Made by a program: the position numbers and the translations under genes. Below the pieces are notes generated by a model. The model was not told the DNA's origin, did not search any database, and saw only the letters and a list, made by a program, of their open reading frames with translations. Shown piece after piece: positions 15,738 through 59,868 of a stretch of DNA of 64,000 nucleotides. Source of the DNA: an uncultured bacterium (GTDB lineage: Bacteria; Patescibacteriota; Minisyncoccia; UBA6257; 2-01-FULL-56-20); the NCBI GenBank assembly GCA_963844965.1, contig CAWJQC010000006.1:58014-122013 (forward strand), written 5' to 3'. Each line of letters opens with the position of its first letter. Position 1 is the stretch's first letter.

Positions 15738-15809
15738 GGGCACTTAGCTCAGTGGCAGAGCGACTCGCTTACACCGAGTAGGTCGGAGGTTCAATCCCTC
15801 CAGTGCCCA
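15738..15809 (+). tRNA. tRNA-Val (anticodon UAC)
   Basis: GGGCACT-TA-GCTC-AGTGGC-AGAGC-G-ACTCG-CTTACAC-CGAGT-AGGTC-GGAGG-TTCAATC-CCTCC-AGTGCCC-A. Confidence 0.8.
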
Positions 15810-15867
15810 CTAAAAAATCTAATGGGGCAAGCCGAGAAGGCTGCAGGTCCGATTCCTGCGTCGCCCA

Positions 15868-15963
15868 CAGTGGCAGAGCGACCGCCTTACACGCGGTAGG
15901 TCGTAGGCTCGCCCCGTAGCAAACCGAAGGTTTTGCTTCGGGGTTCAATCCCTACAGCGCGCA
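15868..15963 (+). other. Second tRNA-Val(UAC)-like copy, 5'-truncated, with a 36-nt hairpin insertion between T-stem and T-loop
   Basis: ..C-AGTGGC-AGAGC-G-ACCGC-CTTACAC-GCGGT-AGGTC-GTAGG-[ctcgccccgtagcaaaccgaaggttttgcttcgggg]-TTCAATC-CCTAC-AGCGCGC-A. No GCGCGCT acceptor 5' strand or D-stem 5' strand lies upstream. It is preceded by a T-arm-like GCAGG-TCCGATT-CCTGC-GTCGCCC-A fragment. Confidence 0.35.
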
Positions 15964-16009
15964 CAAAAACAAAAACGTCCAACTGGGCCGTTTTTATTTT
16001 TGTGCGCTT
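15959..16009. terminator. Long hairpin terminator
   Basis: GCGCACAAAAACAAAAACGtccaactgggcCGTTTTTATTTTTGTGCGC. Confidence 0.5.
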
Positions 16010-20457: not shown

Positions 20458-20771
20458 GGGGATGATCGGCTTCGATAAGGATAAGTCCTGAACTGGCAAG
20501 CCAAGAGCTAACTTGTAAATCTGGCAAAAAATCAATAACTGCCAACTCAAAAGTTGCAGCTCCAGCATTCGCTTACGCGTAACGTTGGACATCGGCTGAT
20601 CCGGGCTTCTTGGGTTAATACCGGTGTTATATAAGGAAGCTCGTTCCGAGTTGACGATTCTACGCTCGGCACTAAACACAGAATCATTTCTGTCTAGTTT
20701 AACTGGACTACGCTTGTAGAAGGTTTAAGCGATTTTATCCTTACACGGCGGTTCAATTCCGCCCATCTCCA
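20458..20771 (+). ncRNA. ssrA: tmRNA (SsrA); predicted tag ANSKVAAPAFAYA
   Basis: 5' GGGGATGATCGGCTTCGATAAGG resembles the tmRNA 5' consensus. An internal tag ORF ..GCC AAC TCA AAA GTT GCA GCT CCA GCA TTC GCT TAC GCG TAA is present. The 3' T-arm GGCGG-TTCAATT-CCGCC plus acceptor CATCTCC-A pairs with the 5' GGGGATG. Confidence 0.8.
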
Positions 20772-20948
20772 CTAAAACAAAAATACTCGCTCCTTGTGAG
20801 CGGGTGTTTTTGTTTCTTGTAAAATGGTCTGGCGGAATTGAACGAGGGGTGGGCCGGAGGGGAAACTCGGTGTCCCCTCCGTGTAGGAAATTACTCAAAA
20901 CCGAGGGTTGTGAGAGAGCGAGTTGCTGTATAGCGACTCGCGACGTGA

Positions 20949-20966
20949 AATTCCGCCCATCTCCAC
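20949..20966 (+). repeat. 18-bp direct repeat of the tmRNA 3' end (AATTCCGCCCATCTCCAC), att-like scar
   Basis: Identical to 20755..20772. A partial inverted copy (ggcggaattgaacg) lies at 20826..20840. Confidence 0.55.
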
Positions 20967-21173
20967 ATAACCAGAATTGAACTTTAGAAAACCCTCCAGA
21001 AGGGTTGAAAAATCTAGCCCGACCCTGATTTTTTCTTGGTTTTCCATTTTGCGTTTTTGAAACAGTATCACGCGAGGGAGTGAATATAAAAAAAACCGAC
21101 ACCTATTAGTGCCGGTTGTAAAGGATAGGTTTCTTTAGACAGTGATTCGACGGCTTTTTGCCGTTTTTTTTCG

Positions 21174-31595: not shown

Positions 31596-31822
31596 TTCCT
31601 TTCCCCTATTCCCATTTTACAAAATAGACTCTGGTTTTGTAAGTCCTACGCGCCGCTTTTTGTTTTTAGGAAGCTGTCGGAGGCGACGCAAGCTTGGTTC
31701 CGCTGAAAGCGGATTGCGCCGCCGACCTGCCTGCCAGGCAGGGATGCAGAGCCGATTCGCCGCTGGAGCGAATCGAGCTCGATTCTCAAAAACAAAAACC
31801 GGCGCGGTTACAAAACGAGGGT

Positions 31823-42065: not shown

Positions 42066-42512
42066 ATGATAAGCCAACGGGGGACAAAAACAAAACTGTC
42101 GTATGAGTATATAAGGGGCCTAACCGAAGGAGAGGGAACTTTTACTTTTTGCAATTCTGGCCACAGAAAGATACCGGCTTTTACTATCAAAATGCATGTT
42201 AGAGACAAAAAATTGTTGGAAGCCGTCAGGGATGTTCTTGGCTTGAAAAATAAGGTATACCAATATCATTATCCAGGAAATGATGGTTCGGCGAGGGGTC
42301 CGCAAGCGATGCTTATTGTCCGCGAAATAGGGAATCTTAAGGATGTAATAATACCCCTGTTTGCCAAAAAACTTGCCGGCAACAAGGGTAAACAATTTGA
42401 CGCTTGGATTGAAAAGATATGGGAAGACCCGGACGTGCCACGGGCTTATAAGCTAATCTATAAAATCTATAAATCCGGGTTTTATGATAGAAATCCGAAA
42501 TTTATTTCTTAG
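42066..42512 (+). CDS. Free-standing LAGLIDADG-family homing endonuclease
   Basis: LSYEYIRGLTEGEGTFTF (single LAGLIDADG-type motif), KLLEAVRDVLGLKNKVYQY, AMLIVREIGNLKDVIIPLF. Confidence 0.65.
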   Translation: MISQRGTKTKLSYEYIRGLTEGEGTFTFCNSGHRKIPAFTIKMHVRDKKLLEAVRDVLGLKNKVYQYHYPGNDGSARGPQAMLIVREIGNLKDVIIPLFAKKLAGNKGKQFDAWIEKIWEDPDVPRAYKLIYKIYKSGFYDRNPKFIS

Positions 42513-42778: not shown

Positions 42779-43114
42779 ATGGACCAGCAAAAACTCAACG
42801 AATATAAAAAAGAGTTGGAAGCGACGCGCGCCGAACTGCTTGCGGAGCTAAAAAAGGATGAGAAGCCGGAGGATTTTGGCGGTGACGTTGACCATGGCGA
42901 AGAGGAAGAAAACGAGACAGAAAGCTTCAGCGAGCAAGTAGCGCTCGGACAATCACACAAAGAACAAATCAACGATATTGATATTGCTCTGAGCAAAATT
43001 GAGACCGGCAAATTCGGGATTTGCGAAAAATGTGGCCGTGAAATAGAAGAAAGAGTATTGCGCATCACGCCAGAATCGCGGCTCTGTAGGGCTTGCAAGA
43101 CAAACAAGAAGTAG
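42779..43114 (+). CDS. DksA/TraR-family C4 zinc-finger protein
   Basis: C-terminal CEKCGREIEERVLRITPESRLCRAC. Confidence 0.65.
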   Translation: MDQQKLNEYKKELEATRAELLAELKKDEKPEDFGGDVDHGEEEENETESFSEQVALGQSHKEQINDIDIALSKIETGKFGICEKCGREIEERVLRITPESRLCRACKTNKK

Positions 43115-44655
43115 TGTATAAGGAGGGGGTGCAAAAAAACTTAGCGCGCGTCTATTCAGCTGAACTGGAGGGAATAAAAGCAAAACTCATTGAAGTGGAG
43201 GTGGATTTGAATGTCGGCCTCCACTCTTTTAACATCGTCGGCCTTGCCGATAAGGCACTGAACGAAGCGAAGGAACGCGTCAATTCCGCCTTGAAAAATT
43301 CCGGCATCAAGCCGCCGAACAGAGAGAACAGAAAAATAACCGTGAACCTTGCGCCGGCGGACGTGAAGAAAGCCGGCTCGCAATATGATTTGGCTATCGC
43401 CATTGGCTACCTGCTCGCAACAAAGCAAATCGTGGAATTTGACGCGAAAAATAAGATTTTCTTGGGGGAGCTCGCGCTTGACGGCCGCCTGCGGCCGGTT
43501 AATGGCGCTTTAAATATCGCCGAACTCGCGGAAAAATCGGAATTTGAATATTTGTTTTTGCCGCAACAGAACGCCAACGAAGCCGCCGTCGTAAAGAACG
43601 TGAAGGTAATTCCGCTTGAAACGCTGGAGGACGCGATAGATTTTCTTGAGGAACGCAAATCCATAAAGCCGGTGGATTTCAGTCCGCTCGCTGCCGAGGA
43701 AATTCAGGCGCCGGATTTTTCCGAAATAAAATCGCAGGAGAATGCCAAACGCGCGCTTACGATTGCCGCAGCCGGCGGACACAATCTTCTGATGATCGGG
43801 CCGCCGGGAGTAGGGAAGAGCTTACTCGCCCAAGCAATGATTGGGATTCTGCCCGACCTCGCGCTTCCGGAAGCAATAGAAATCACGAAGATATATAGCG
43901 CCGCGGGACTCAGCCCCGGAGGACTCATGAAACAGCGGCCTTTCCGTTCGCCGCATCAGACGGCATCAATCGTCGCGGTCGTTGGCGGCGGCACGGACCC
44001 GAAACCCGGCGAGATAAGCTTGGCGCACCGCGGCATATTGTTTCTTGACGAACTGCCGGAGTTCCAGAAAAACATACTGGAGGCCCTGCGCCAGCCGATG
44101 GAATCGGGAACTGTGCACGTGGCACGCGCCAAAGGAACACTTGTGTTTCCTGCTAAATTCACGCTTGTCGCCGCGATGAACCCCTGCCCCTGCGGTTTCT
44201 ACGGCGACCCGGAAAAGGAATGTAAATGCACGGCCTACGAAGTAATCCGCTACCAGAAAAAGATCTCCGGGCCGCTTTTGGACAGGATTGACCTGCAAAT
44301 CAAGGTTCCGCGCGTAAAAATCGCGGAACTGCGGGAACGTAAAAATGCTGAACCTCAAAGTCCGAGCATCAAAAAACAAATTGAGCGCGTGCGGAAAATC
44401 CAGGCCGAGCGATTTGCCCGGCTCAAGATACAGACCAACTCCGAAATGAGTTCGCGCCAGGCGGAGGAAATGATTAAATTTGAACCCGGCGCGGAAAAGT
44501 TTTTGGAAACACTGGACCGCTCGCGCCTATCACCCCGCGGCTACTACCGTTTACTAAAAACCGCCCGCACCATCGCGGATCTGGAAAATCAGGAAAAGGT
44601 TTCTGCGGAACATTTGGCCGAGGCGTTTAGCTATCGGCTGAGAGAAGAAGTTTAA
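43093..44655 (+). CDS. YifB/ComM-family Mg-chelatase-like AAA+ ATPase
   Basis: ...LLMIGPPGVGKSLLAQAMIGILPDL...LFLDELPEF... Confidence 0.85.
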   Translation: MQDKQEVVYKEGVQKNLARVYSAELEGIKAKLIEVEVDLNVGLHSFNIVGLADKALNEAKERVNSALKNSGIKPPNRENRKITVNLAPADVKKAGSQYDLAIAIGYLLATKQIVEFDAKNKIFLGELALDGRLRPVNGALNIAELAEKSEFEYLFLPQQNANEAAVVKNVKVIPLETLEDAIDFLEERKSIKPVDFSPLAAEEIQAPDFSEIKSQENAKRALTIAAAGGHNLLMIGPPGVGKSLLAQAMIGILPDLALPEAIEITKIYSAAGLSPGGLMKQRPFRSPHQTASIVAVVGGGTDPKPGEISLAHRGILFLDELPEFQKNILEALRQPMESGTVHVARAKGTLVFPAKFTLVAAMNPCPCGFYGDPEKECKCTAYEVIRYQKKISGPLLDRIDLQIKVPRVKIAELRERKNAEPQSPSIKKQIERVRKIQAERFARLKIQTNSEMSSRQAEEMIKFEPGAEKFLETLDRSRLSPRGYYRLLKTARTIADLENQEKVSAEHLAEAFSYRLREEV

Positions 44656-44755
44656 CTAAACCAACGCGGTTGGCGGCACACTTCCTGGTTTAACCTTGTT
44701 TTATTTGATTTTTTCGCCTTTCTATAGTTATAAACAGTTAATCCACAACAAGGGC

Positions 44756-44783
44756 TTGACACCTGTCGTGCATATGCTAGAAT
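44756..44783 (+). promoter_or_regulatory. Strong sigma70-like promoter (TTGACA-N16-TAGAAT) at the head of the AT-rich island
   Basis: gggcTTGACAcctgtcgtgcatatgcTAGAATc. Confidence 0.45.
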
Positions 44784-44828
44784 CTAAGCAAATAGTCGAA
44801 ATGGGTGTAATAGCAAAATACTAATCAA

Positions 44829-45068
44829 ATGGTGGAAGAAATCAATAAAAACAAGGCGGAAACGCCGCGGGAAAGGTTCGTGAGGTTGGCCACCCAAAGG
44901 ACAAATGAGGTCCTGAAACGGCTGAGGGTCTTAGGCAATTGTTCAAATCGCAGTGCCTACGAGTATGAAGAAAAGGATGTGGAGAAAATATTTGGAGAAA
45001 TTGACAAGAAAGCAAAGGAGGTTAAATCGAAGTTCCAACAATCAAAACATAGGGAATTCAAATTATAG
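44829..45068 (+). CDS. Hypothetical small basic protein (first gene of the island operon)
   Basis: 79 aa; its stop lies 3 nt before the start of the next gene. Confidence 0.4.
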   Translation: MVEEINKNKAETPRERFVRLATQRTNEVLKRLRVLGNCSNRSAYEYEEKDVEKIFGEIDKKAKEVKSKFQQSKHREFKL

Positions 45069-45070
45069 AA

Positions 45071-46954
45071 ATGACGGAATTAATCCAACCTCAAAATCGC
45101 GAGAGGGATTTAAGGGCCGCACTAGATGGTTACCGCGCCCACGTCGAGCATGATGAATGGTTCACAGAAGCATTCCAGAAAGACGTCATTCAAAATAGTT
45201 GGGACGCTAGGGAGGATAAAAAACACGGCCACGGATGGAGCTGCTCAATCTTACTCAATTCAAAAATATTTAATGGCAAGAGGGGGATTGTCATCAGTGA
45301 TGCGGGCACGAAGGGACTGACGGGGAGAATACCGACATCGCAGAATAATTTACTTCAAATTTTGAAGGATGGGCAATTCTCAGATAGACTAGCGTTCTTT
45401 TTGAGTTCACAATGGAGCGAACACGAGGAGGGGGAGGGTGGCTCACGCGGGAGGGGAAAAATGTTGCTTCTGGCGGCTTCTGAAGATTGCGAATTTTATT
45501 TTGATTCTTTAAGATTTGATGACCATCGATGTATTTTTGGACGAGTATTTTTAGACGAAAACAAAGAAATAAAAATCAACTTTGAGGTTGGCGAAAGTGG
45601 CAAAAATGAATTGAAAAAAATTCTGCCATTTCAAAAGCCGCTCGCTCAACCGGGAACGAGAATATTTATCCCCAATCCCCGAGCCGATCTAGAAAAAGGG
45701 TTCAGAAAAAACGCGGTGGCTAAATACGTTATGAGAACGTGGTGGGAAATTTTAGAGAAATATAATGCACAAATAAGTATCGGGGTTGATGACGCCATAG
45801 AAAAAGTAAATCAATGCGAGTGGCTCCCTCCATCAAGAATTGTGGAAAAAGAAAATTTAAAGGAATATCCGCCTATTCCTATTCAAAATAATTTGAAAAT
45901 CAAAAGAATTACGCTTGGTTTTTTAAAAGGTAAAAATATCCCGGACAATTATAAAGGCATTCACCTCCAGCGAGCGGGAATGATTATTGAAAGCGTTAAG
46001 CTATATGACCTAGTTCAAGAAAACTGGAACGACAAAATATATGGCATAGTAGAATTCGAACCAGAACTTGAGGAAGAAATGAAAAATCACGAGGGGGTAG
46101 AGCATTATAATTTCTTTTGGACCCACAACCCTCCAAGGTTTGTAAGGCAGATTTTAAAACAAAAAGTGTTGGAGTTCGCTAGGGAACATCATTTATTAGA
46201 AGAGGGCGCAAAACAAGCCAAAGAAATAAAGGAGGCCGAGAATAATGCAGAAAAAATACTTAATAAACTAGCAAAACAATTAAATCTCAAAGGATTTTCG
46301 AGGAAACGAAAAACGCGAACCACAAAAAAGAGGGAAAAAAATGAGAAAATAAGACTTTCAATAAGAGATTTGGAAATCCCACAATCTGGTAGGTTTGAAT
46401 TCGGCGAGTCGTTGAAGGGCGCTTATGCTGTCCCAATTAGCGAGTACGAAAATCAACTCAAAACACGGATATCGGTATCGATTTACGAAAAAAATACCGG
46501 GAGAAATATCATAAATACTTCTGAAGAGAGACTAATTAGTGTATTCAACAACAACCAAGAAGGGGTGGGCTGGAAAACCGTTACAATTGACAAAGAAAAA
46601 TTTAACAGGGGAGCGTATGTTTTTAAAGCAAAAATGATATCGCTGGAAGAAACGAGTGTCGGGTCCACGGCCGTAGAGAAAGGGGAGGAGCTTTACCACC
46701 CTGTCAGTGGAATATTTTGGGTTGACCAAGATCCGGACGAGGAGGGATTCTTTGATGTACGACGGTCAGACAGGGACGAAAAAGAAAAATTCTTTTGGTG
46801 GAGAAATGAGGGATCTGACAAAGTAGATCACTATGTTTTCTACTGGAATGGCGAACACATGGTTTTCAAAGAAATCAGGAACGATAAAACGTCGCTAGAA
46901 TCTGCGCTAGTTCGATTTGGATCAGTTAGCAGCACTTTCCGTAGCTTTTTCTAA
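45071..46954 (+). CDS. GHKL-type (HATPase_c-like) ATPase N-terminal domain fused to a large uncharacterised C-terminal region
   Basis: Bergerat-fold N box FQKDVIQNSWDARED (compare ELIxNSxDA of MutL/HSP90/MORC) and G1 box VISDAGTKGLTG. The remaining ~450 aa have no recognisable motif. Confidence 0.5.
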   Translation: MTELIQPQNRERDLRAALDGYRAHVEHDEWFTEAFQKDVIQNSWDAREDKKHGHGWSCSILLNSKIFNGKRGIVISDAGTKGLTGRIPTSQNNLLQILKDGQFSDRLAFFLSSQWSEHEEGEGGSRGRGKMLLLAASEDCEFYFDSLRFDDHRCIFGRVFLDENKEIKINFEVGESGKNELKKILPFQKPLAQPGTRIFIPNPRADLEKGFRKNAVAKYVMRTWWEILEKYNAQISIGVDDAIEKVNQCEWLPPSRIVEKENLKEYPPIPIQNNLKIKRITLGFLKGKNIPDNYKGIHLQRAGMIIESVKLYDLVQENWNDKIYGIVEFEPELEEEMKNHEGVEHYNFFWTHNPPRFVRQILKQKVLEFAREHHLLEEGAKQAKEIKEAENNAEKILNKLAKQLNLKGFSRKRKTRTTKKREKNEKIRLSIRDLEIPQSGRFEFGESLKGAYAVPISEYENQLKTRISVSIYEKNTGRNIINTSEERLISVFNNNQEGVGWKTVTIDKEKFNRGAYVFKAKMISLEETSVGSTAVEKGEELYHPVSGIFWVDQDPDEEGFFDVRRSDRDEKEKFFWWRNEGSDKVDHYVFYWNGEHMVFKEIRNDKTSLESALVRFGSVSSTFRSFF

Positions 46955-47050
46955 AGCTAAACAAAACAAAAAGGCTTTTGAAAAAATATTCAAATCGGAC
47001 GAACTACGGCTACAAGATTCTGATGATATTTTAAAGGTCATCGTGGGAAG

Positions 47051-47728
47051 ATGGGGACTATTTATGGCGTCGAAATAGGTATGATGGCGATACTTTTACG
47101 AAAAGATAACGAAAAAATTTATTTTTCAGATAAGGGGCCGGTAACTGAGGAGAAAAAAACGAAAGCCGACACTCTGGATGGAGAATTGAATAGTGGGATA
47201 CAACGATTGTTAAAACTTTTTTTAAAAATGCATCTCATCACAAAGAATGGGAGGAAAAAAGACGCACTCAGGGTTTGGTATGGTTTTGGTAAGTTTCTAT
47301 TAGATTTAGCTAATAAGTATAAAATAATCGGCAGCGGCGACGAAATATATTTCTGGCAGGCAATCTACGATCATCTGCCAAAAGAATTTCAGAAGAATCC
47401 TCCACCAAAAAGATTTCGACAACTATCTAAAAATCAATATAGAAAAGCGGCTATTATGGCTCAATATCCGTGGGATACCATCAAGAAAGTAGGAAGGTGG
47501 GCGGTTTGGAACGACATTCTAGATAATCCCAAAATCCTTAATGACAAACGGATTCTTGATTGGATTGTCCGAAAAGTTATCAAAAACCCCCTCCCTCATA
47601 AAGAGATAAGAAAATTTTTATATGCCGTGAGTACGCGTCTTCGTAAAATCGATACTAGCGTTTTAAGTCTTGAGGAGTTGAAACAAAAACTAGATACAGT
47701 GACATTAACCCCTATTTTAAATTCATAA
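47051..47728 (+). CDS. Hypothetical protein
   Basis: 225 aa, Lys-rich, no recognisable motif. Confidence 0.35.
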   Translation: MGTIYGVEIGMMAILLRKDNEKIYFSDKGPVTEEKKTKADTLDGELNSGIQRLLKLFLKMHLITKNGRKKDALRVWYGFGKFLLDLANKYKIIGSGDEIYFWQAIYDHLPKEFQKNPPPKRFRQLSKNQYRKAAIMAQYPWDTIKKVGRWAVWNDILDNPKILNDKRILDWIVRKVIKNPLPHKEIRKFLYAVSTRLRKIDTSVLSLEELKQKLDTVTLTPILNS

Positions 47729-47737
47729 GCCCGCGTA

Positions 47738-47777
47738 GAATTGAGGACATAATATCCTGAAATTAACGGCTCCGGCG
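47738..47777 (+). repeat. 40-bp direct repeat, copy 1
   Basis: gaattgaggacataatatcctgaaattaacggctccggcg; copy 2 at 49221..49260 differs at 2 positions. Confidence 0.6.
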
Positions 47778-47854
47778 GGTGGAGGCCCTGCCTGCCGGTA
47801 GGCAGGGCTAAACCACACCACTAATTCAGTAACACCCCTTCAGTAACGCCCTGC

Positions 47855-48928
47855 TTATTCGAAGAGAGTAGGATTATTGCGCGGGTCATGGCCCTCAACT
47901 CTGTCTATCATGAATCTTACCGCATCGTTCATGCTAACCGCCTGTAATTTTATTCCCGGGTGTTTCTCGTGAAAGACCCTGAAAATCTCATCGGCAAATG
48001 CCTGACCGATCATCGGAACTTTATCAAAATCAAAAATGATTGACTTGAACTTTTCCAAATTTGTGAGCACCCTTCTTGCTTGGGAACGAGAAACATGGAC
48101 TCCGCTCATGGTGTAGAGTTTCACTTTTATCTCGGTTTTGTCAAAACCATAATCCCCGTCTTTGGTGATATCGGTGTATCTTTTAAAAATGTCATTAAGG
48201 TGCCTATCGGAATCTGTATTGATCTCGAAAGAAACGGATGTCCCGCGTTTGCTTTTTTTACTGCGCGAAACAAATATGTCGCCGATACGATTATTTACAA
48301 CCATCTGGATTCCGAAACTGTCTAAAATGAAAATGTCGGCGGTTTTTGAGGTAAAGAATATGCCCTCACCAGAATGAGCTTTTGGCTGGGTGGTTGTCTT
48401 GCCCTTTAGCAATTCTTGGATGGCCTCCAATTCAGATTTTAATCCTCGCTTTCGCATCACGTTTCGGAATACCCCGATACCAGCATCAATAACCCGAAAC
48501 AGCAACCGCCTGTCTGCGATTTCAACCAGAACTTGTATGTTCTTTGACTCTGAATGTTCTATGGCGTTATTGAGCATTTCTGAGAACGCGTAAGTAAAGA
48601 TACTCCTTATGTTCTCGTGGAGTTTAAGAATCACAGGCAGTCTCTCTTCTATTTCATCTAAAACCCGATGTTCTTCCAGATTTACGTTCTTAAGAGATTT
48701 TTGTATTCTTGTCGGCAATAAATCCAGATGCTCTGTCACATATTGAGGAGAAACGTAAAATGCGCTTCTGGTTGAACCTATTTTCATTAGCTTCCTCGCG
48801 GTAATCAGATTGTTAATCAAAATCTTTGCGTATTGTCTGGAAACCCCAAGAAGCGACACTACGTCCCGTGTCTTAATCTGCTTCTTTATTTCTAAAAGAG
48901 AAAGAATTTTTTGTTCTTGATTGGTCAT
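47855..48928 (-). CDS. wHTH plus anti-sigma-kinase-like GHKL ATPase (RsbW/SpoIIAB-type) plus uncharacterised C-terminal domain
   Basis: N-terminal DVVSLLGVSRQYAKILINNL (HTH); FSEMLNNAIEHSESKNIQVLVEIADRRLLFRVIDAGIGV (N box and G1 box). Confidence 0.5.
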   Translation of the reverse strand: MTNQEQKILSLLEIKKQIKTRDVVSLLGVSRQYAKILINNLITARKLMKIGSTRSAFYVSPQYVTEHLDLLPTRIQKSLKNVNLEEHRVLDEIEERLPVILKLHENIRSIFTYAFSEMLNNAIEHSESKNIQVLVEIADRRLLFRVIDAGIGVFRNVMRKRGLKSELEAIQELLKGKTTTQPKAHSGEGIFFTSKTADIFILDSFGIQMVVNNRIGDIFVSRSKKSKRGTSVSFEINTDSDRHLNDIFKRYTDITKDGDYGFDKTEIKVKLYTMSGVHVSRSQARRVLTNLEKFKSIIFDFDKVPMIGQAFADEIFRVFHEKHPGIKLQAVSMNDAVRFMIDRVEGHDPRNNPTLFE

Positions 48929-49220
48929 GGTTCGGTTAGCTATAAGTTAATTGTAAACCAAATTAAATTCAATTGTCAACTAATTGTAAACTAATGGTTT
49001 TTACCCCAACAAAACCGCCCGAATTGCTGAGATTGCGTCACTGAAAGCTCGGGCAACCGCTGCAAACATTCTTCTGGTTCTGGTTCGACTACGCTCACCA
49101 TCTCGAGCGAAGTCGAGGGACAATAATGCCTGCCTGCCGTGCCTTCGGCAGGTGAACCGGCAGACAGGTCCGCTCATTTCCACCTATATCGGTTTTACTA
49201 TCTTAAACTCCAGCTTGGTT

Positions 49221-49260
49221 GAATTGAGGACATAATATCCCGAAATTACCGGCTCCGGCG
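49221..49260 (+). repeat. 40-bp direct repeat, copy 2
   Basis: gaattgaggacataatatcccgaaattaccggctccggcg. The AT-rich composition ends here. Confidence 0.6.
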
Positions 49261-49323
49261 CTAGGGGGACGATAACCTGGCCGAAATAAAAAGGCCGCGC
49301 GGCGAACCACGCGGCGAGAATCT

Positions 49324-49662
49324 TTAGGAAATGTGTTCGCGCCTTCTGAATCTCGCGGAAAACACAAATTTGATTAGCTCCCACAGCTCGGCGAATGCGA
49401 CCCACCAAGGGGTGAAGTCGTGGTAGGCCTCACAGTTCGAGCAGAGGAGATATCGTCTATTGATAAATCCGTGCGGATAATCCTTGCTCTCATGGCCGCA
49501 TCGCCCGCAAAAGAAAAGGAAAAATGGCAGTGGGGCGGTAAACCCCTCTTTTTGTTCGTGCCCCAATTTATACTTGATGCCGAATGCCTTTATCACACCT
49601 TGTTTCCATCTCGGCAATTTGCGCCATGCCCGTTGAGCCTCCAGATTGTACGCCAAATTCAA
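49324..49662 (-). CDS. Hypothetical Cys/His-rich (zinc-finger-like) protein
   Basis: CGRCGHE...CSNCEAYH. Confidence 0.3.
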   Translation of the reverse strand: MNLAYNLEAQRAWRKLPRWKQGVIKAFGIKYKLGHEQKEGFTAPLPFFLFFCGRCGHESKDYPHGFINRRYLLCSNCEAYHDFTPWWVAFAELWELIKFVFSARFRRREHIS

Positions 49663-49726
49663 GTTTGCCTCCTTGTCTCTCCTAGAAATTTACTGCTCAG
49701 ACCCTATCGGTCTACTTTCTCTATCT

Positions 49727-50131
49727 CTACCGTAACGTAAAATTGATGGTTTTCTCGCCGTTGACGAACGGTAGCAATTCGGCAGCAAAATCCTGTTCTT
49801 TGCTGCCGATAATGACGTGATCTGGTCCCCTGCCAAGGCCAGAAGAAAGAATGTAAAAAAGTAGTTTCGCCGTTATGGGTCGCTCTTTTTTAATATCTTC
49901 AATCGCTTTGGCGTAGTAAAGACAATCGTCATTGAAATAATTACTCACTATGTGACCAGGTCTAACAGCCAACCATATTGTGCGCGCCAAATCGTTGCAA
50001 AAAACCGCCTTGACCTCCTCGGTTTTTTCTGGGTCAAAAGGAAGCGTCACGGTCTCTGGTATCATCTCCTCCTCCTTGTCCTCCTTGTCAACGAACCGTG
50101 CTTGGGCTAAGCGCAGGTTAGTATGCTTCAA
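49727..50131 (-). CDS. Hypothetical protein
   Basis: 134 aa, no recognisable motif. Confidence 0.3.
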   Translation of the reverse strand: MKHTNLRLAQARFVDKEDKEEEMIPETVTLPFDPEKTEEVKAVFCNDLARTIWLAVRPGHIVSNYFNDDCLYYAKAIEDIKKERPITAKLLFYILSSGLGRGPDHVIIGSKEQDFAAELLPFVNGEKTINFTLR

Positions 50132-50226
50132 AAGTTATGTCAAGGTAGGTCTCACAAAGAATTCTCTTGGCTCCGGCTGGTGGAAAATATATAAAAAGGC
50201 CTCGTCGTTCTTAACGACAGGGCCGT

Positions 50227-50640
50227 TCATCGCACTACCGAATCGTAGGGCGGGGGATTCGGGAGGTCTTCCGGAGTAATCTCGGAGAGAGCAATTCCTC
50301 TTTGCGCCGCAATTTGTTTCGCAAGCGCCACTCGCTCCTTTCCTCTTCCGTTGGGAACGAATTTTCGGCAGAATGAGTCAACTACCGTGCCGCATTCGCA
50401 CACGAGGGGGAAGAAAATGGAATCCGTCGCTCGTATCCTCCCCGTGCATTGGGCTCGGGACGTATTTTGTTGAAAGGCACTGAAGCCCCACCGAAGGTCC
50501 TCGTGGTGGTGGAATGGAGAACGGTCAACGCCTTCTCCGGGCGGTACTCCCATGAATTCATAATGTTTCAATTCGCATGACCCGTCGTGCTTACAAAACT
50601 GGCAATAGTGGAAATATCCGCCCGTTAAATCTCGCTTCAT
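50227..50640 (-). CDS. Hypothetical Cys/His-rich protein
   Basis: The start was chosen at MKRDLTGGYFHYCQFCKHDG after the RBS ggagaggtagg. The tracked ORF extends to 50811 but its first 57 codons overlap a separate 58-aa TM peptide ORF in another frame. Confidence 0.3.
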   Translation of the reverse strand: MKRDLTGGYFHYCQFCKHDGSCELKHYEFMGVPPGEGVDRSPFHHHEDLRWGFSAFQQNTSRAQCTGRIRATDSIFFPLVCECGTVVDSFCRKFVPNGRGKERVALAKQIAAQRGIALSEITPEDLPNPPPYDSVVR

Positions 50641-50830
50641 CCTACCTCTCCGTGTTGATCGCACATTGCCTCTCCCAGCAACCCGCGACGATATGTTTGT
50701 CTCCGGCTCTTGCAATAAGGGCAACGCGGATACCGCCATCTCACCACAAGGAACCCTGCCGCCGTAAACACAATTGCAACGAGTAAAAGAACGAAACGAA
50801 CCATGTTTCACCTCCCTCTAAAATCTAAAC

Positions 50831-51061
50831 TCATTTGTGCTGGTCCGCAGAATGAAGCGGCCGCATTTTGCCGTGGGATTTAAGCCACCCGAAGGCGCGC
50901 TTGGCGCGAGACGCTTTTTTGCTAACGATACTTGTCGTTTTGTTCGTGGAGGACGCTGGAGATTTCTGTTTAGTATTTGCCGAGAGAAAAGAAGGGTAGA
51001 TTACCGACGCGAATACCAATATTACTATCCATATTTTTTTCATCATCCCTCCTGTTTTCAA
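50831..51061 (-). CDS. Hypothetical small secreted protein
   Basis: 76 aa with a signal peptide MKKIWIVILVFASVIYPSFLSA. Confidence 0.3.
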   Translation of the reverse strand: MKTGGMMKKIWIVILVFASVIYPSFLSANTKQKSPASSTNKTTSIVSKKASRAKRAFGWLKSHGKMRPLHSADQHK

Positions 51062-51237
51062 GCGCCTTAAACTATCTCAAATATATTACTATGCGCTTCC
51101 CGCTGTCAATATAATTCGCCGGTCTAGCCGATAAAAAATCCAGCCGCTCCGGCGGGCAAGAGGCTGAGAATCGGGGGCGCTACACTATCGTTGTTTAAAA
51201 AGAAAAAGACCGGCTTTGTGGGCTGGTCTCTGTTGGT

Positions 51238-51687
51238 TTAAAACTGTGGCGGCTGAATGTCATTCAAATACTTAAACCGGCCTCCCGGATATTTTGGTAT
51301 AAGCCGAAAGAACGAACGCCTCGTGGCTTCTCCTCCAGCGTCGGGGACAAAAACCATCAGATCATAGAACTGTTCCCCTGCGGAATCGCTTAGTATAATG
51401 CCTCCCGCGAGATGATTTTTGGCTATCTGGACAAGGGTGGAACTAGCCTCCGGTGGAATTGTCTTGTTAATGTGCGAGGAGATAAGGGCCCTCAGACACA
51501 TACCCAACTCAACTTGAATACGATCATCTTCCATGAGTTCGTCGAGTTCTTCCCAATATGCCCAAGTTGTCAGCTTGAGGGAAGCTGTTGCCGTTTTCAT
51601 TTGCGCCGAGTTTTCCATGGTTGCCTCCGTTTCTCGATTATTAGAGCCTAAAAAATTAAAGAGCTTGTCTGCTGGACATACTACCAT
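51238..51687 (-). CDS. Hypothetical protein
   Basis: 149 aa. Confidence 0.3.
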   Translation of the reverse strand: MVVCPADKLFNFLGSNNRETEATMENSAQMKTATASLKLTTWAYWEELDELMEDDRIQVELGMCLRALISSHINKTIPPEASSTLVQIAKNHLAGGIILSDSAGEQFYDLMVFVPDAGGEATRRSFFRLIPKYPGGRFKYLNDIQPPQF

Positions 51688-51782
51688 GCATTGAAAACAT
51701 TGTCAAAGCCAGCGGCTGGACGGCGCGAGGACCGACGTGATATATATAATTTAGATATTTTCAACAATAAGAGGGCTGGCTG

Positions 51783-52274
51783 ATGAAAATTCCGAGCGAC
51801 CCGAATGATGTGCAGAAAAAATTTCTCGGCAGACAAGCTGGTGAACGAGGCGGGGGGTTCTTGGAAATTACGGAATCGCCGCAAAAGACGGCGACCACGA
51901 TAATGCCGATAATTCCAAAATTACGGTCGAGCTTTAGGGTGGGGCGCTTTGTCTTGGAGGTGGTGCTGGACAATTCGTTTGAAGAAAAAGTTGATGGGAG
52001 ATGGAAATACCGTTACAAAACGGAGAGTAATTTCATCGTTTTCAAATCAAAACCAACCCGTCTTGAGCGGAATGCTTACCGGCACCTCGCAAAGTTTCTG
52101 AAGAGCCGCCGTCCATATAGGCCGATCATCACCATTAGATTGTACAAGCAAATTTCCTCAAGACCGATAGAATCTTTATCTGGCAAAAAAATAACGGCAG
52201 CAAAATGGCTGCCGTTTTTCTATATCCAAAAATTCCTGCGCGCGGCAAAACCGTTGTTCAAAATTCCCCCGTAG
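51783..52274 (+). CDS. Hypothetical protein
   Basis: 163 aa, basic. Confidence 0.3.
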   Translation: MKIPSDPNDVQKKFLGRQAGERGGGFLEITESPQKTATTIMPIIPKLRSSFRVGRFVLEVVLDNSFEEKVDGRWKYRYKTESNFIVFKSKPTRLERNAYRHLAKFLKSRRPYRPIITIRLYKQISSRPIESLSGKKITAAKWLPFFYIQKFLRAAKPLFKIPP

Positions 52275-52317
52275 GGTATAATCTAATCAGAATTTTATAA
52301 TCCGCGGGAGGGATTAG

Positions 52318-52731
52318 GTGGGCAAAAAAACAAAACACCACGCGCCCCCGCAGTGCCCGGACAATAGACCAAGATTTCTAGGCAAAAGGACAGAGGAACA
52401 TCACAGCGCGTATCATTTGCTGTTCGGCAACCCGCGAACATTCAGAGAGGCGGTCAAGATCCTGAAACGGGACTGGTGGGACCTAGGCAAGAAAAAGAAA
52501 ACCAAAATACGGAAAACATTGGAAGAACACAAGGCTTATCATGTCCTATTTAACAACGCCAAATCATTTTACGATGCGGCTCAGATATTGAGACACGACT
52601 GGTGGAATCCACCGCACCCAACGGTCTGTGATCGGCAAAAAAACGACGGTTTACAACCGCCGTCTTTTTTATTCACAGCAAATGTCAGCGAACGAATCCG
52701 GCGTTCAGCAAGCCGCGCCGGCTTGGCTTGA
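52318..52731 (+). CDS. Hypothetical protein with internal tandem duplication (EEHxAYHxLF...DWW twice)
   Basis: EEHHSAYHLLFGNPRTFREAVKILKRDWWD followed by EEHKAYHVLFNNAKSFYDAAQILRHDWWN. Confidence 0.3.
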   Translation: MGKKTKHHAPPQCPDNRPRFLGKRTEEHHSAYHLLFGNPRTFREAVKILKRDWWDLGKKKKTKIRKTLEEHKAYHVLFNNAKSFYDAAQILRHDWWNPPHPTVCDRQKNDGLQPPSFLFTANVSERIRRSASRAGLA

Positions 52732-52740
52732 CCAATTTCG

Positions 52741-53826
52741 CTACCGAGCCATTGGATTCTGCGCGCCGTAAACCTCAAAATGCACGTGACAGCCGGTCGC
52801 GTCGCCGGTCTCGCCCATAAGCCCGATCTCCTGTCCTTGCTTAACATAATCGCCGATTGAAACCAGAACTTTCTCCAAGTGTGCATAGCGTGTGCGGACG
52901 CCGTCGCCGAACGGATGTTCTATCAAAACGAAATTTCCGTAGCCGCCATTCCAGCCGCCGCCGTCGCCGCTGCCGAAATTATCGTCCGGCACAACCAAAC
53001 CCTCGGCCGCCGCCACGACCGGCGTGCCGCAAGCGTTTGCGATATCAACGGCATTATAATGGTGCAATATCCCCCAATCATATCCGTCAGCGGGTTTTAC
53101 AAAATTGGCGGAAAAATTCGGCAAAGAATTAAGAGTCGTGTATGCGAAGCTGATATTTTTTACGCCGGGTATAACAAGATTTATGCCAACACCAAGGGAG
53201 CCGAAATTTATTGACTTGTTAAACTCGGTGATTTTTTCTTCCGGAACCCCAAAATAGTTCGCTACGGATTCCAGGGTATCGCCGTCGCGCGTTGTGTAAA
53301 CGATTCCGGTCGTCGGTAAGATGTTCAGTTCGTCTCCGACGCGCAATACTTTTGCCTTCACGCCCGGATTGGCGTTCACGATCGTATCCAAAGAAACTCC
53401 GAAATAGGAAGCGATGCCGTAAAGGGTGTCTCCTTCCTGGACCTTATACGTCATGAGGTCGTCGCGAGAGGGGCCGGCAGCTTCGCCGGGATCCATCGCC
53501 GCGCCGACTATGGTATACTCCGCCGGAGAACCATATTCCGGCAAATCGCTTGAAAGGGGCGACGACCCCAGCGCCGTCGCAATCGGCTCACGCGCGAAGG
53601 TGGCGGCCGCTACGGCTAAGTTCTCAAGCGCGTTCGCTACTTTCGGTCCGCCTAGAACCCCAGTTCCGGAATTCTCCTTATCCTTGAAATAAGGCGAAAA
53701 TGCGCCAACAAAGACGATGGCGGCCAGCAAAAAAACGGCCATTCCTAATGGCTTTTTGTCTTTATTTAATTGGCCTAAAATGGTACTAATATCATTATTA
53801 TACCACAACGCTAGGAAAAATCTCAA
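52741..53826 (-). CDS. LysM-domain M23 peptidase
   Basis: Two LysM repeats (YKVQEGDTLYGIASYFGV.., YTTRDGDTLESVANYFGV..) and a C-terminal M23 domain ...GYGNFVLIEHPFGDGVRTRYAHL...GETGDATGCHVHFEV. Confidence 0.75.
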   Translation of the reverse strand: MRFFLALWYNNDISTILGQLNKDKKPLGMAVFLLAAIVFVGAFSPYFKDKENSGTGVLGGPKVANALENLAVAAATFAREPIATALGSSPLSSDLPEYGSPAEYTIVGAAMDPGEAAGPSRDDLMTYKVQEGDTLYGIASYFGVSLDTIVNANPGVKAKVLRVGDELNILPTTGIVYTTRDGDTLESVANYFGVPEEKITEFNKSINFGSLGVGINLVIPGVKNISFAYTTLNSLPNFSANFVKPADGYDWGILHHYNAVDIANACGTPVVAAAEGLVVPDDNFGSGDGGGWNGGYGNFVLIEHPFGDGVRTRYAHLEKVLVSIGDYVKQGQEIGLMGETGDATGCHVHFEVYGAQNPMAR

Positions 53827-53995: not shown

Positions 53996-55963
53996 ATGGA
54001 ACTAAATACACAACAAAAAGCCGCGGTGGAGGCGCCGCGTGGACCACTTTTAATCGTGGCCGGAGCGGGAACCGGAAAGACACGGACGCTCACGAGCCGC
54101 CTTATGCATTTCATAGAAGAAGGCACGAAGCCGCAAAGAATCTGCGCCATAACTTTCACGAATAAGGCGGCGAAAGAAATGGCCGAACGCATCAGCGACC
54201 TGAAAAACCCGAATTCCATCCGAATGACCCGGAAAAATAATTCGGGGCGTTCGGATGTATTCGTAGATTCGGGTCGCGGTCAACCTTTCATCGGAACTTT
54301 TCACGCTCTTGGCGCGAGAATTTTACGGAAAGAATGCCGGCTCCTCGGCCGAAAACCGAATTTCGTCATTTTTGACGACCACGATTCGTTTGACCTTATA
54401 AAGAAAATAACAAAAAAACTTCTGCCGCCTGGAAAATCCGACAAAGCGGACGGCGGCAAGCGAGAACGCGACGAACGGCCGGCCTACTTCGCGGAAAAAA
54501 TTTCCGAAATAAAAAACCTGAACGACGCGCTCCAGAAATTGACCGGCTCCGAGAAAGAAAAGGACAAGCTAGCCCTTAAAATATTCAAGTTGTATGAAAA
54601 ACGGCTCCAAGAAAATAACGCTTTTGATTTTGACGACCTGATAGAAAAAGTTGTTTTTCTTTTCCGAAGATATCCAGAAGTTCTGCAAAAATACCAGAAA
54701 AAATTTGATGCGATCCTGGTTGACGAATACCAAGACCTGAACCCCGCGCAATACGAGCTTGTGAAATTTTTGGCCGGCGGACACAGGAACCTGAGCGTGG
54801 TGGGCGACGACGAGCAAATGATCTACGGCTGGCGCTACGCCGATCTCAAAACATTCCTGGATTTTGAACGCGATTGGCCGGGGGCGCGAATCGCCTTCCT
54901 TGAAGAAAATTACAGGTCAACCGCGAACATCGTCGGCGCGGCAACTGCCGTCGCGGCGAACAATGTTTACCGCAGGCCAAAAAACCTCTGGACAAAAAAT
55001 GAAGCGGGAGCGCGGATAAAGATCTGCGAACTGGATGACGAAGACGAGGAGGCTGAGTGGATAGCAAACACAATTTCCAATTTCCAATTTTCAATTTTCA
55101 AAAAAAACGGCGAAGGTGAATCAACTGCAGTTCTTTATCGGACGAACGCGCAGTCGCGGGCGATAGAACAGGCGCTGATAAACAAGCAAATTTCATACAA
55201 AATTTTCGGCGGCGTGAAGTTCTACGAACGCAAAGAAATCAAGGATATTGTCGCCGCCATGCGTTTAGCCGCGAATAAAAGCGACGAGATAAGCCGCGAC
55301 CGGCTGGAAAAAAATCTCAGCAAAAGAAAATTTTCGGAACTCTGGGAAAAAATCTCCGACCCGAAGGCGGGAACCGCCGCCCCGGTGAAACTAATAAACA
55401 TTTTCCTCAAAGCCACTGCCTATGTTGAATACCTTGAAAAAAACTATTTCAACTACGACGAGAGAAAAGAGAATATAAGCGAACTCGTAAATTTCGCCTC
55501 GCGCTACGACAATCTGCCGCAATTTCTGGAAGAAATCGCGCTCGTGCAACCGACGGACGTACCGTCGGCTAGCGACAAGGAACCCGCCTACGCCAAGGCT
55601 TCGGTGGGCAGGCAAGCGACAAGCGACAAGGAAAAACCAGTTTCCAGTAACCGGTTACCAGTTGCCAGCTTGATGACCATCCATCTGGCGAAAGGCTTGG
55701 AATTTGACGATGTTTTCATCGCCGGCGGCACGGAAGGACTCTTGCCGCACGCCCGCTCAATGGAGAATGAATATCAGTTGGAAGAAGAACGGCGGCTGAT
55801 GTACGTTGCCATGACGCGCACTAAAAAAAATCTGCACATTAGTTTTTACGACACGCCTTCAAGATTTTTATCCGAAATACCGACAGAATTCACGGAGCTT
55901 GAAAACAAAATCGGCGGCTCCTCACCGCCGGATGACGAAGAAAATTTTATTTCATACGATTAG
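53996..55963 (+). CDS. UvrD/PcrA/Rep-family DNA helicase
   Basis: MELNTQQKAAVEAPRGPLLIVAGAGTGKTRTLTSRLMHFI...; helicase motifs continue throughout. A TISNFQFSIFKKNGE insertion is encoded by the (TTTCCAA/TTTTCAA)n repeat at 55071..55108. Confidence 0.85.
   Translation: MELNTQQKAAVEAPRGPLLIVAGAGTGKTRTLTSRLMHFIEEGTKPQRICAITFTNKAAKEMAERISDLKNPNSIRMTRKNNSGRSDVFVDSGRGQPFIGTFHALGARILRKECRLLGRKPNFVIFDDHDSFDLIKKITKKLLPPGKSDKADGGKRERDERPAYFAEKISEIKNLNDALQKLTGSEKEKDKLALKIFKLYEKRLQENNAFDFDDLIEKVVFLFRRYPEVLQKYQKKFDAILVDEYQDLNPAQYELVKFLAGGHRNLSVVGDDEQMIYGWRYADLKTFLDFERDWPGARIAFLEENYRSTANIVGAATAVAANNVYRRPKNLWTKNEAGARIKICELDDEDEEAEWIANTISNFQFSIFKKNGEGESTAVLYRTNAQSRAIEQALINKQISYKIFGGVKFYERKEIKDIVAAMRLAANKSDEISRDRLEKNLSKRKFSELWEKISDPKAGTAAPVKLINIFLKATAYVEYLEKNYFNYDERKENISELVNFASRYDNLPQFLEEIALVQPTDVPSASDKEPAYAKASVGRQATSDKEKPVSSNRLPVASLMTIHLAKGLEFDDVFIAGGTEGLLPHARSMENEYQLEEERRLMYVAMTRTKKNLHISFYDTPSRFLSEIPTEFTELENKIGGSSPPDDEENFISYD
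55071..55108 (+). repeat. (TTTCCAA/TTTTCAA)n element, copy C, embedded in the helicase CDS
   Basis: caatttccaatttccaattttcaattttcaaaaaaaac, in frame as ..NFQFSIFKK.. Confidence 0.45.
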
Positions 55964-59064: not shown

Positions 59065-59868
59065 ATGAAACGACTCGGCCAACATTTCCTGAAAAACAAA
59101 TCGGCACTAGAAAAAATCGCGGCGGCGCTGGAATTAAAATCCGGCGACCTTGTGATCAAGATCGGCGCGGGACGCGGGGAATTGACGGAGGTCGTAGAGC
59201 GTGAAACACGAAACGCGAAACATGATGTAAAAATTATCGCGATTGAAAAGGACGGAGAACTGGCGGAATTTGTGCGAAAGAAACTCACCGCAGACAAAAA
59301 TATTGAGATCGTTACCGGCGACGCCCTAAAAGTTATTCCGCAATTAATTACACAATTGCCCAATTACCCAGCTGCAAGTTACAAACTTGTCGGCAACATT
59401 CCCTATTACATCACGGGGCGCCTTTTACGGATTATCGGCGAGCTTGAAGACAAACCCGAACTCTGCGTCTTTACTTTGCAGAAAGAAGTCGCGGAAAGGA
59501 TCTGCGCGGAGCCGCCGCGCACGAACCGGCTCGCGGCAAGCGTGCAGTTCTGGGCCGAACCGGAAATTATCACATGCGTGCCGCGAGAAAATTTTGAGCC
59601 GCAACCCGGCGTAGATTCCGCCATAATTAGATTAAAAATTAAAAATCAAAAATTAAAAATAGGCGACTCAGAATATTACTGTGCTCTGCGGGCGTTGTTC
59701 GCGCAACCGAGAAAAACAATACTGAACAATTTGGCGACGAGCGACAAGCGACAAGCGACAAGGAAAATCGAGGTAGCGGAAAAACTAAGGAAAATCGGCA
59801 TAAAACCGGATGACAGGCCGCAGGATTTGAGTGTGGACGATATTATCAAAATCGCCAAAAACTTTTGA
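59065..59868 (+). CDS. rsmA: 16S rRNA (adenine1518/1519-N6)-dimethyltransferase RsmA/KsgA
   Basis: MKRLGQHFLKNKSALEKIAAALELKSGDLVIKIGAGRGELTE...VGNIPYYITG... Confidence 0.85.
   Translation: MKRLGQHFLKNKSALEKIAAALELKSGDLVIKIGAGRGELTEVVERETRNAKHDVKIIAIEKDGELAEFVRKKLTADKNIEIVTGDALKVIPQLITQLPNYPAASYKLVGNIPYYITGRLLRIIGELEDKPELCVFTLQKEVAERICAEPPRTNRLAASVQFWAEPEIITCVPRENFEPQPGVDSAIIRLKIKNQKLKIGDSEYYCALRALFAQPRKTILNNLATSDKRQATRKIEVAEKLRKIGIKPDDRPQDLSVDDIIKIAKNF

Follow-up and report, generated by a model that had tools for sequence, protein, structure and literature searches.

Background

Cis-mobilizable elements (CIMEs) keep attL and attR sites and have lost their integration genes, and their tandem accretion at att sites has been reviewed (PMC5704250). 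Tyrosine integrases that insert at the 3' ends of genes are described in accounts of the ssrA islands of Dehalococcoides (PMC3146451) and of the dusA-specific integrases (PMC4482086), and the 13-kb H47 genomic island of E. coli, which has long multi-block att repeats, has been shown experimentally to excise (PMC5426353). We report the analysis of a locus that invites comparison with these systems. It lies in a stretch of 64,000 nucleotides (hereafter 'the window') from an uncultured patescibacterium (assembly GCA_963844965.1, contig CAWJQC010000006.1, positions 58,014 to 122,013), in which two 43-nt copies of an imperfect direct repeat enclose a single credible gene within a variable region that begins directly downstream of comM.

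The Patescibacteria, or candidate phyla radiation (CPR), have genomes of about 1 Mb with few recognisable mobile elements, and most of their lineages are uncultured; to our knowledge, the gain and loss of accessory genes in these bacteria is poorly known. The main value of the locus is that it offers a concrete and testable example of gene flux in CPR bacteria. Two further kinds of site serve as points of reference in what follows. The attC sites of integrons fold as imperfect single-strand hairpins of 57-141 nt, and integron cassettes are mostly promoterless and are accompanied by IntI, attI and Pc. The target-site duplications of transposons are short (2-15 bp) and perfect, and lie beside terminal inverted repeats and a transposase.

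The reading that we favour, which we regard as an even proposition, is that the two copies are att-like junction repeats of a small, integrase-less, CIME-like cassette beside comM. On this reading the cassette is one transcription unit without a recombinase gene, situated in a hotspot of gene flux directly downstream of comM. Below we describe the repeat and its setting, weigh four rival explanations where the relevant evidence is given, and compare the locus with the systems named above.

Results

The direct repeat and its copies

The first-pass annotation had described a near-perfect 40-nt direct repeat at 47738-47777 and 49221-49260, and both copies were found at exactly these positions; none of 100 dinucleotide-preserving shuffles gave two matches, and no third match to the 40-mer occurs in the window with up to 3 mismatches allowed. 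Repeat finders add 3 nt to the left, giving 43-nt copies on the plus strand at 47735-47777 (copy 1) and 49218-49260 (copy 2), which are identical at 40 of 43 positions, share a longest perfect block of 20 nt and are spaced 1483 nt from start to start (the element as a search pattern is GAGGACATAATATCCYGAAATT). With tRNA genes excluded, this pair is the longest dispersed (non-tandem) repeat of at least 90% identity in the window. When the copies are aligned, similarity ends abruptly on either side of both, giving the sharp edges expected of attL and attR, for which direct repeats of about 15-100 nt are typical, and the copies sit at junctions of unrelated DNA. A Logan contig from an independent assembly (L001; run ERR10755942, 2152 nt) is 100% identical to 47671-49822 and spans both copies, so that misassembly is unlikely; since no shuffle reproduced the repeat either, chance and misassembly can both be ruled out as its origin.

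Several more ordinary explanations of the repeat were also considered, and most were rejected. A transposon target-site duplication does not fit a repeat that is 43 nt long and imperfect, with no adjoining terminal inverted repeats and no transposase. Copy 1 begins with GTAG, as would a repetitive extragenic palindromic (REP) element with a 5' GTAG, and this candidate is ruled out by the GTTG and GTGG at the start of the other copies and by there being two copies in the window. Dispersed repeats of the REP type in general, or miniature inverted-repeat transposable elements, would have many intergenic copies across a genome; the DNA covered gave two in 64 kb, none in about 1 Mb of related loci and one on a Joint Genome Institute (JGI) metagenome contig. 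A tRNA-derived repeat is excluded because there is no tRNA or tmRNA at the element and no T-loop sequence within it, and a coding explanation because stops lie within the element in all three plus-strand frames and the flanks of the copies differ.

A weak partial third copy of the right end of the element (GGCTCCGGCTGGTGGAA) lies at 50169-50185 on the plus strand, between the open reading frames (ORFs) 49727-50131 and 50227-50811. Its score of 27, against a null 95th percentile of 24, is marginal, and as a real copy of the element it is suggestive only.

A variable hotspot between comM and a peptidase gene

For comparison, 50 related loci (about 1 Mb) were fetched via their ComM proteins and the ORFs of the window were compared with them by tblastn. 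The retrieval identifies the host as a Paceibacteria/Liptonbacteria-like Patescibacterium and reveals a common backbone, in the order H+-PPase, NusA, UPF0102, (LAGLIDADG), DksA-like, comM, M23/LysM peptidase and UvrD. In the window, comM (an Mg-chelatase-like ATPase gene; 43093-44655, plus strand) and the LysM/M23 peptidase gene (52741-53826, minus strand) form the left and right borders of a gap of 8.1 kb (44656-52740) that encloses both repeat copies; the same gap measures 14-200 nt in several relatives and holds 1.2-2.8 kb of unrelated genes in three others. Both copies therefore lie inside a variable hotspot and not at its edge.

No window ORF from the hotspot has a counterpart in the 50 loci, and the five closer relatives (ComM amino acid identity 92-97%) each have different genes after comM. 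Exact-protein look-ups of the neighbouring ORFs of 225, 112 and 627 aa returned no record. Beyond two parts, nothing in 44656-52740 is matched in the related loci; the two are the unit formed by the enclosed helix-turn-helix (HTH)-kinase gene, which is found in four other genomes in unrelated contexts, and a 66-nt element around copy 1, which is found on the JGI contig (L002).

Copy 2 had been taken at first to mark the edge of an AT-rich island. At kilobase resolution this holds, as low GC (0.39-0.43) spans 44656 to about 49000 and GC is back to at least 0.5 there. In detail it does not: the recovery comes at 49006, where the conserved gene-plus-promoter unit stops and copy 2 is still about 215 nt away, and the variable region runs on to 52740. 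The spacers just inside the repeats have GC contents of 0.60 (47778-47854) and 0.53 (49007-49217); the second, which extends from the promoter to copy 2, is not conserved and contains a degenerate GC-rich palindrome at 49129-49168.

The element in other genomes

Beyond the window, the element was looked for with its perfect 20-mer core. The 20-mer has no match in 185,579 species genomes (the GTDB representatives, one per species) and none in IMG/VR, and a profile of the element found nothing in the 50 related loci. Its single match in JGI metagenome contigs is L002, which derives from a relative whose comM 3' end is 86% identical to that of the window at the DNA level.

L002 carries one copy of the element downstream of comM, in the same hotspot and in surroundings unrelated to those of the window. 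This copy matches 62 of 66 nt of an extended element at 47719-47784 (L002 3498-3563), that is, the 40-mer of copy 1 with 19 nt more on the left and 7 nt more on the right; the first 10 nt of the extended element, from 47719, are the last codons and stop of ORF 47051-47728. Identity between the window and L002 is higher in the element (62/66, and 42/43 for the core) than in the comM 3' end (187/218; binomial p = 0.03 and 0.01, respectively). The element is native to the hotspot in at least one relative, L002, and is conserved there above the level of comM. Reduced forms were also seen: the right half alone lies about 65 nt after the comM stop codon in a further relative (L059), and a degenerate 22-nt version of the element centre (GAGAATATAATATCCTGATATT) lies 26 nt after the comM stop in L002 itself (373-394).

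Mobility of the gene unit and att-like repeats in relatives

The gene-plus-promoter unit at 47859-49006 recurs in four other genomes (L053, L054, L055 and L069) at 72-79% nucleotide identity. In each it has unrelated neighbours, DNA homology ends at the promoter and the stop codon, and its GC is always 5-11 points below that of its surroundings. Among related genomes, the cargo gene unit has moved from one chromosomal setting to others that are unrelated. Because homology to these four loci stops at 47859 and 49006, the possibility that the repeat travels with the gene can be discarded.

Two of the four loci place the unit at a tRNA gene. In L055 it is enclosed by a 32-nt repeat (861-892 and 2200-2231; 30/32 identical, spacing 1339 nt) made up of the last 20 nt of tRNA-Trp and 12 further nucleotides. 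The cargo homologue there is 85% identical, and the locus is another cassette of one gene that has att-like flanks and lacks an integrase. In L054 the unit lies 39 nt from the 3' end of tRNA-Leu and adjoins an Xer-type tyrosine recombinase gene. L053 has a weaker flanking repeat of 22 nt, and L069 has no flanking repeat.

The 3' end of comM is itself duplicated in two relatives. In L002 a diverged 82-nt repeat of the comM 3' end (263-344 and 3208-3289), followed by the degenerate core, encloses a 2.9-kb insert that carries a 269-aa ORF and a radical-SAM/SPASM gene and has no integrase; in L010 an 87-nt comM-3'-end repeat (11441-11526 and 12269-12355) encloses genes for a 56-aa and 151-aa Doc/Fic-type toxin pair, again with no integrase. 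The starts of these two repeats fall within 3 nt of each other, at the same codons of comM (ACG ATT GCG GAT). A shared boundary together with a duplicated gene 3' end is the classical signature of site-specific integration, and the common boundary of these repeats in independent events therefore points to a site-specific process and suggests that this lineage has an attachment site about 85 nt ahead of the stop codon of comM. A comparable trace is present within the window at the tmRNA gene (20458-20772), whose 3' end recurs 194 nt downstream (20755-20782 and 20949-20976; 24/28 identical); the last 18 nt form a perfect block (AATTCCGCCCATCTCCAC), about 170 nt now separate the copies, and the repeat is an att-like scar or footprint of an element once integrated at ssrA. 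In the hotspot adjacent to comM, several cassettes have accreted, at least three of them bounded by att-like repeats and lacking a recombinase gene.

These comparisons bear on the somewhat unlikely alternative that the locus is a recombination mosaic. The element would then be a conserved intergenic piece found downstream of comM, and two variants of the hotspot that had it at different positions would have been joined at it by homologous or microhomology-mediated (RecA-independent) recombination after DNA uptake, so that a copy remained on each side of the DNA in between. In keeping with this, copy 1 is wholly native-like and copy 2 wholly foreign-like, as if imported with DNA, the content of the hotspot differs in every relative, as fits exchange anchored in the core genes comM and M23, and no recombinase was found in the window or in the hotspots of relatives; the H47 genomic island gives a precedent for recombinase-free mobility between imperfect flanking repeats (PMC5426353). 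Yet homologous exchange would be expected to leave a longer stretch of homology beside the copies on one side or both, whereas both copies have sharp edges and their longest perfect stretch is only 20 nt. The common start of the comM-3'-end repeats in L002 and L010, and the use of a tRNA 3' end in L055, are moreover hallmarks of site-specific integration.

The cargo gene and its promoter

Within the 1440 nt between the copies there is one credible gene, as had been claimed from the outset, at 47855-48928 on the minus strand. Its 357-aa product has, according to Pfam, a C-terminal DUF4325 (STAS-like) domain, weak HATPase_c and HATPase_c_2 matches in the centre and an N-terminal HTH. An AlphaFold (AF2) model built from 35 homologues has a mean pLDDT of 78.8, and Foldseek matches its central domain to the anti-sigma factor kinase SpoIIAB (1til, 1tid, 1l0o; target-normalised TM-score, TMt, 0.70-0.74). 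From these matches, the cargo protein joins three parts in a single polypeptide: a winged HTH, a GHKL kinase like SpoIIAB and a STAS-like domain. At least 5934 matches belong to the family, mostly in Patescibacteria. PDB sequence searches gave nothing useful for this protein, for the 627-aa ORF to the left of copy 1 or for the 269-aa ORF of L002.

Upstream of the gene, at 48929-49006 on the minus strand, is a conserved promoter/operator block with the promoter TTGACA-N18-TACAAT and repeated GTTTACAATT-type motifs (GTTTACAATTAGTTGACAA, then GTTTACAATTAACTTATAG), which is almost invariant across the five genomes (the window, L053, L054, L055 and L069). These motifs are probably the operator for the HTH of the cargo protein. 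The cargo would then be a self-contained regulator that represses its own promoter through them.

A phage origin of the cassette is unsupported, since no matches were found in GenBank phages and the homologues of the cargo gene in IMG/VR are distant (28-42% identity). One of these, 42% identical, lies on the IMG/VR contig L060 (6001-6744 and 7971-9128), where a tyrosine integrase about 1.2 kb away stands at the end of the viral contig.

Anatomy and folding of the element

Read by eye, copy 1 contains an imperfect inverted repeat, AATTGAGGA / CATAATA / TCCTGAAATT, at 47739-47764, with a counterpart in copy 2 at 49222-49247. The arms of 9-10 bp surround a 7-bp spacer and match at 8 of 9 positions with one indel. 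By its layout, AATTGAGGA-CATAATA-TCCTGAAATT is a possible candidate for a tyrosine-recombinase core-type site, in which inverted binding arms stand around an overlap region of 6-8 bp. A search of IMG/VR with the arm pattern gave one match, which is inside an ORF and at chance expectation.

As single-stranded DNA the 50-nt element folds weakly, at -5.0 kcal/mol for copy 1 and -2.0 kcal/mol for copy 2 (z = -1.3 and +1.6), and it is therefore not attC-like; with no stable fold at either copy, an attC-like hairpin is ruled out. Rfam gave nothing at the gathering score or at E <=5 in the region, nor in L002 and L059. In minus-strand orientation, a terminator-like hairpin precedes every copy of the element: at 47808-47785 before copy 1, at 49315-49294 before copy 2, at 50219-50203 before the partial copy and at 3623-3604 in L002. 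The first of these coincides with a GC-rich palindrome, GGCCCTGCCTGCCGGTAGGCAGGGC (47785-47808), which lies directly to the right of copy 1 and downstream of the cargo gene stop and belongs to a dispersed family of hairpins.

That family, CCTGCCTGCCGGYAGGCAGG, is intergenic in several Paceibacteria genomes, often beside tRNA genes, and may be a terminator or REP-like hairpin. It occurs in the window at 47787-47806, 49129-49168, 31726-31745, 1365-1384 and 14641-14660, and is also present in L016, L023, L028, L014 and L018. One member abuts copy 1, and 50 nt separate a degenerate member from copy 2.

The hairpins lead to the second possibility raised in the first-pass annotation, that of a duplicated regulatory element, which we judge quite unlikely. 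The element would then be no recombination junction but a cis-acting signal in DNA or RNA, for instance an insulator, an auxiliary terminator or a palindrome bound by a protein, that follows the terminators of minus-strand transcription units and was duplicated together with those units. This would explain why such a hairpin stands directly before every copy; at its right end the element can fold into a small CTCC...GGAG hairpin with TTAATTT behind it, and conservation above the comM level implies selection. The proposal nevertheless gains little from the rest of the evidence. There is no sigma-70-like promoter geometry at the element, the fold is weak at both copies and a T-to-C change in copy 2 breaks one of its pairs, no Rfam family matches, and nothing in the element resembles the conserved operator of the cargo gene. 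Nor does it occur in the 50 related comM loci or with the gene unit in the four other genomes.

The same arrangement could be read, very improbably, as an integron-like array of minus-strand cassettes, one at 50168-49218 (two ORFs and copy 2) and one at 49217-47735 (the HTH-kinase gene and copy 1), with sites at their 3' ends, crossover at an edge and an unrecognised recombinase that inserts them one at a time. The cassettes do share one orientation and each ends in a terminator and then the element; a partial third copy stands at the next junction, each site is wholly of one type, like attC sites with crossover at one extreme, and copy 2 begins with GTTGAAT, which fits GTTRRRY. Set against this are the lack of an IntI-like gene (the divergent ORFs 51783-52274 and 52318-52731, at the far end of the array, have no Pfam match and do not resemble recombinases), an element of 43-66 nt that forms no stable single-strand hairpin and a cassette with its own conserved promoter, while the third copy is marginal and GTT is present in copy 2 only.

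A dif-type site, finally, would make the cassette an integrative mobile element exploiting Xer (IMEX) or a 'dif module' inserted by the host Xer recombinase, a reading that we consider extremely improbable. It has the attraction of needing no recombinase in cis, the gene unit of L054 adjoins an Xer-type gene, and the arm TGAGGACATAA resembles the ...CATAA inner arm of dif sites. Only this one arm is dif-like, however: the second (GAAATTAACGG) does not mirror it in the 11-6-11 layout of a 28-bp dif site. A dif site is conserved and lies at the terminus, but the element is not conserved in relatives (0 in GTDB representatives, none in the 50 related loci), and GC skew keeps its sign on both sides of the locus, which is therefore not a replication terminus. 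There is also no Xer gene in the window. Arm layout, GC skew and lack of conservation together largely refute a dif/Xer site.

Neighbouring genes and other repeats in the window

The AT-rich insert between the comM terminator and copy 1 (44656-47718, plus strand, GC 0.39) contains a 79-aa ORF, a frameshifted gene of about 668 aa (45071-47078) and a 225-aa ORF. The frameshifted gene is represented by the 627-aa ORF; the last 50 residues of its homologues of 665-675 aa are encoded in another frame at 46926-47075, where identity to the homologue P0241 is 86%. The family of the 627-aa ORF has 71 members, no Pfam domain and named matches in Patescibacteria only, and by eye the N-terminal part resembles GHKL (QNSWDA, DAGTKG). 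At its far end, the variable region contains ORF 52318-52731 (137 aa), which has two copies of a motif of about 30 aa, EEHxxAYHxLFxNxxxFxxAxxILxxDWW, and no Pfam or NCBIfam match. Outside the hotspot, a free-standing LAGLIDADG endonuclease ORF (42066-42512, GC 0.41) lies between the UPF0102 gene and the dksA-like and comM genes; among the relatives only some have it (8 of the fetched loci), and no rRNA or intron context was detected in the window.

Other repeats were also noted. About 120 nt after tRNA-Val (15738-15810) there is a second, diverged tRNA-Val-like sequence (15750-15815 and 15868-15969), which is not called by ARAGORN or Rfam; it is possibly a pseudogene of a tRNA or what is left of an att-type site. 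AT-rich repeat blocks (AATTTTCAATTTTCAA and GAAAATTGTAAAATTGAAAATT) at 8191-8283 and 10738-10823 stand in direct and inverted orientation around a segment from 8.2 to 10.8 kb, and the type occurs once more at 55067-55101. A 28-nt direct repeat, CAAGCGACAAGCGACAAGGAAAA..., is found at 55613-55640 and 59745-59772 (26/28 identical, spacing 4132 nt), the first copy being in the UvrD gene.

Discussion

An origin of the repeats as att sites of a small integrated cassette, the first suggestion of the first-pass annotation, is the best-supported reading, though supported only in part, through geometry and comparison: the sharp block of similarity at the junctions, the hotspot, the L002 copy of the element and the tRNA-Trp and comM repeats of relatives all fit. 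Neither an integrase nor an empty site nor an excision product such as a circular junction was found. On the reading that we favour, the repeats would have arisen by site-specific recombination, through an enzyme of tyrosine-recombinase type that acted in trans or has since been lost. The recombination site would be centred on the imperfect inverted repeat AATTGAGGA-CATAATA-TCCTGAAATT, with the crossover at an edge of the repeat, and the repeats may still be able to support deletion or excision of the cassette. Placement of the crossover follows from the variable positions, since a single crossover inside the repeat would give hybrid sites and none are seen; a mid-repeat crossover is thus excluded, leaving only one at the edge. 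Crossovers of this kind are found in integron attC sites and in cases in which the segment of identity reaches out to one side of the crossover.

A number of observations weigh against this interpretation. The first concern the copies themselves. A simple crossover in the middle of the site would not produce the pattern seen at the variable positions: copy 1 has the L002 base at the two internal ones and matches L002 in both flanks, copy 2 differs from L002 and copy 1 at all three variable positions and at both flanks, and the flanks of the L002 copy match those of copy 1 on both sides and not the right flank of copy 2. The inverted repeat of the putative core site was read by eye and is statistically not strong. 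In the other four genomes the gene occurs without the 43-mer, and two of them have no repeat flanking the unit; the sample is small, with two strong and one weak repeat-flanked unit.

The second group concerns the enzyme and the products of recombination. In the cassette itself no integrase, resolvase or transposase was found. Family scans and seed searches left no recombinase candidate among the hotspot ORFs: Pfam, PADLOC, PHROGs and NCBIfam found none on the scanned ORFs of 44656-52740, and phmmer with Xer and resolvase seeds found none anywhere in the window; 20 ORFs from the hotspots of relatives and the insert of L002 likewise gave none. Nor does a related integrase-bearing parent element with the same att site, as would be expected for a CIME, appear in the GTDB representatives, JGI metagenomes, IMG/VR or the related loci, in which sampling is limited. 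No empty-site allele, with a single copy joining the outer flanks, was present among the relatives compared, and the Logan contig is unbranched at both copies, which speaks weakly against the presence of a detectable excised variant in that sample.

A wider reading, which is more ambitious and which we think unlikely, is that Paceibacteria exchange recombinase-less cassettes of one or two genes, such as the wHTH/SpoIIAB-like/STAS regulator, the Doc toxin pair and the radical-SAM gene, at fixed sites by means of a host-encoded or unrecognised recombinase, for which the 22-26-bp palindromic core would be one site. One of the fixed sites may be at least 26 nt downstream of comM, another about 85 nt ahead of its stop codon, and others at the 3' ends of tRNA genes. 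If true, this would amount to an integron-like cassette economy in ultra-small CPR genomes. If the repeats of the locus are active recombination sites, they point to a site in cis through which genes are gained and lost in CPR bacteria and, by implication, to an enzyme acting in trans; if they are passive scars, the locus would be an ordinary decayed islet. Either way, the uncharacterised cargo family, an HTH joined to a kinase like SpoIIAB and a STAS-like domain, has more than 5900 relatives and is very widespread among these bacteria.

When the locus is set beside the described systems, integron cassettes share with it the form of one-gene or few-gene units bounded by a recurring site, each site belonging wholly to one cassette. 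The locus departs from them in having no attC hairpin, no IntI with attI and Pc, and a promoter of its own. The H47 island is likewise small, with imperfect direct repeats and no encoded recombinase, and is mobile through host functions (PMC5426353), whereas the cassette in the window is known from sequence alone. With the islands at the 3' ends of tRNA, tmRNA and protein genes the locus and its relatives have in common repeats of tens of nucleotides, the duplicated 3' ends of tRNA-Trp (L055), comM (L002 and L010) and tmRNA (the window), and sharp boundaries that are common to independent events; they differ in that the repeat of the window is an intergenic element and not a gene 3' end, and in that no integrase accompanies any cassette seen. 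CIMEs are a further counterpart. Unlike them, the cassette measures only 1.44 kb and has one gene, no intact related element or integrase turned up in the window or the relatives, the host is a Patescibacterium and mobilisation in cis is only proposed. Like the CIMEs (PMC5704250), it has attL/attR-like direct repeats, carries neither integration nor transfer genes, a regulator being its only gene, and belongs to a region in which several unrelated cassettes stand side by side.

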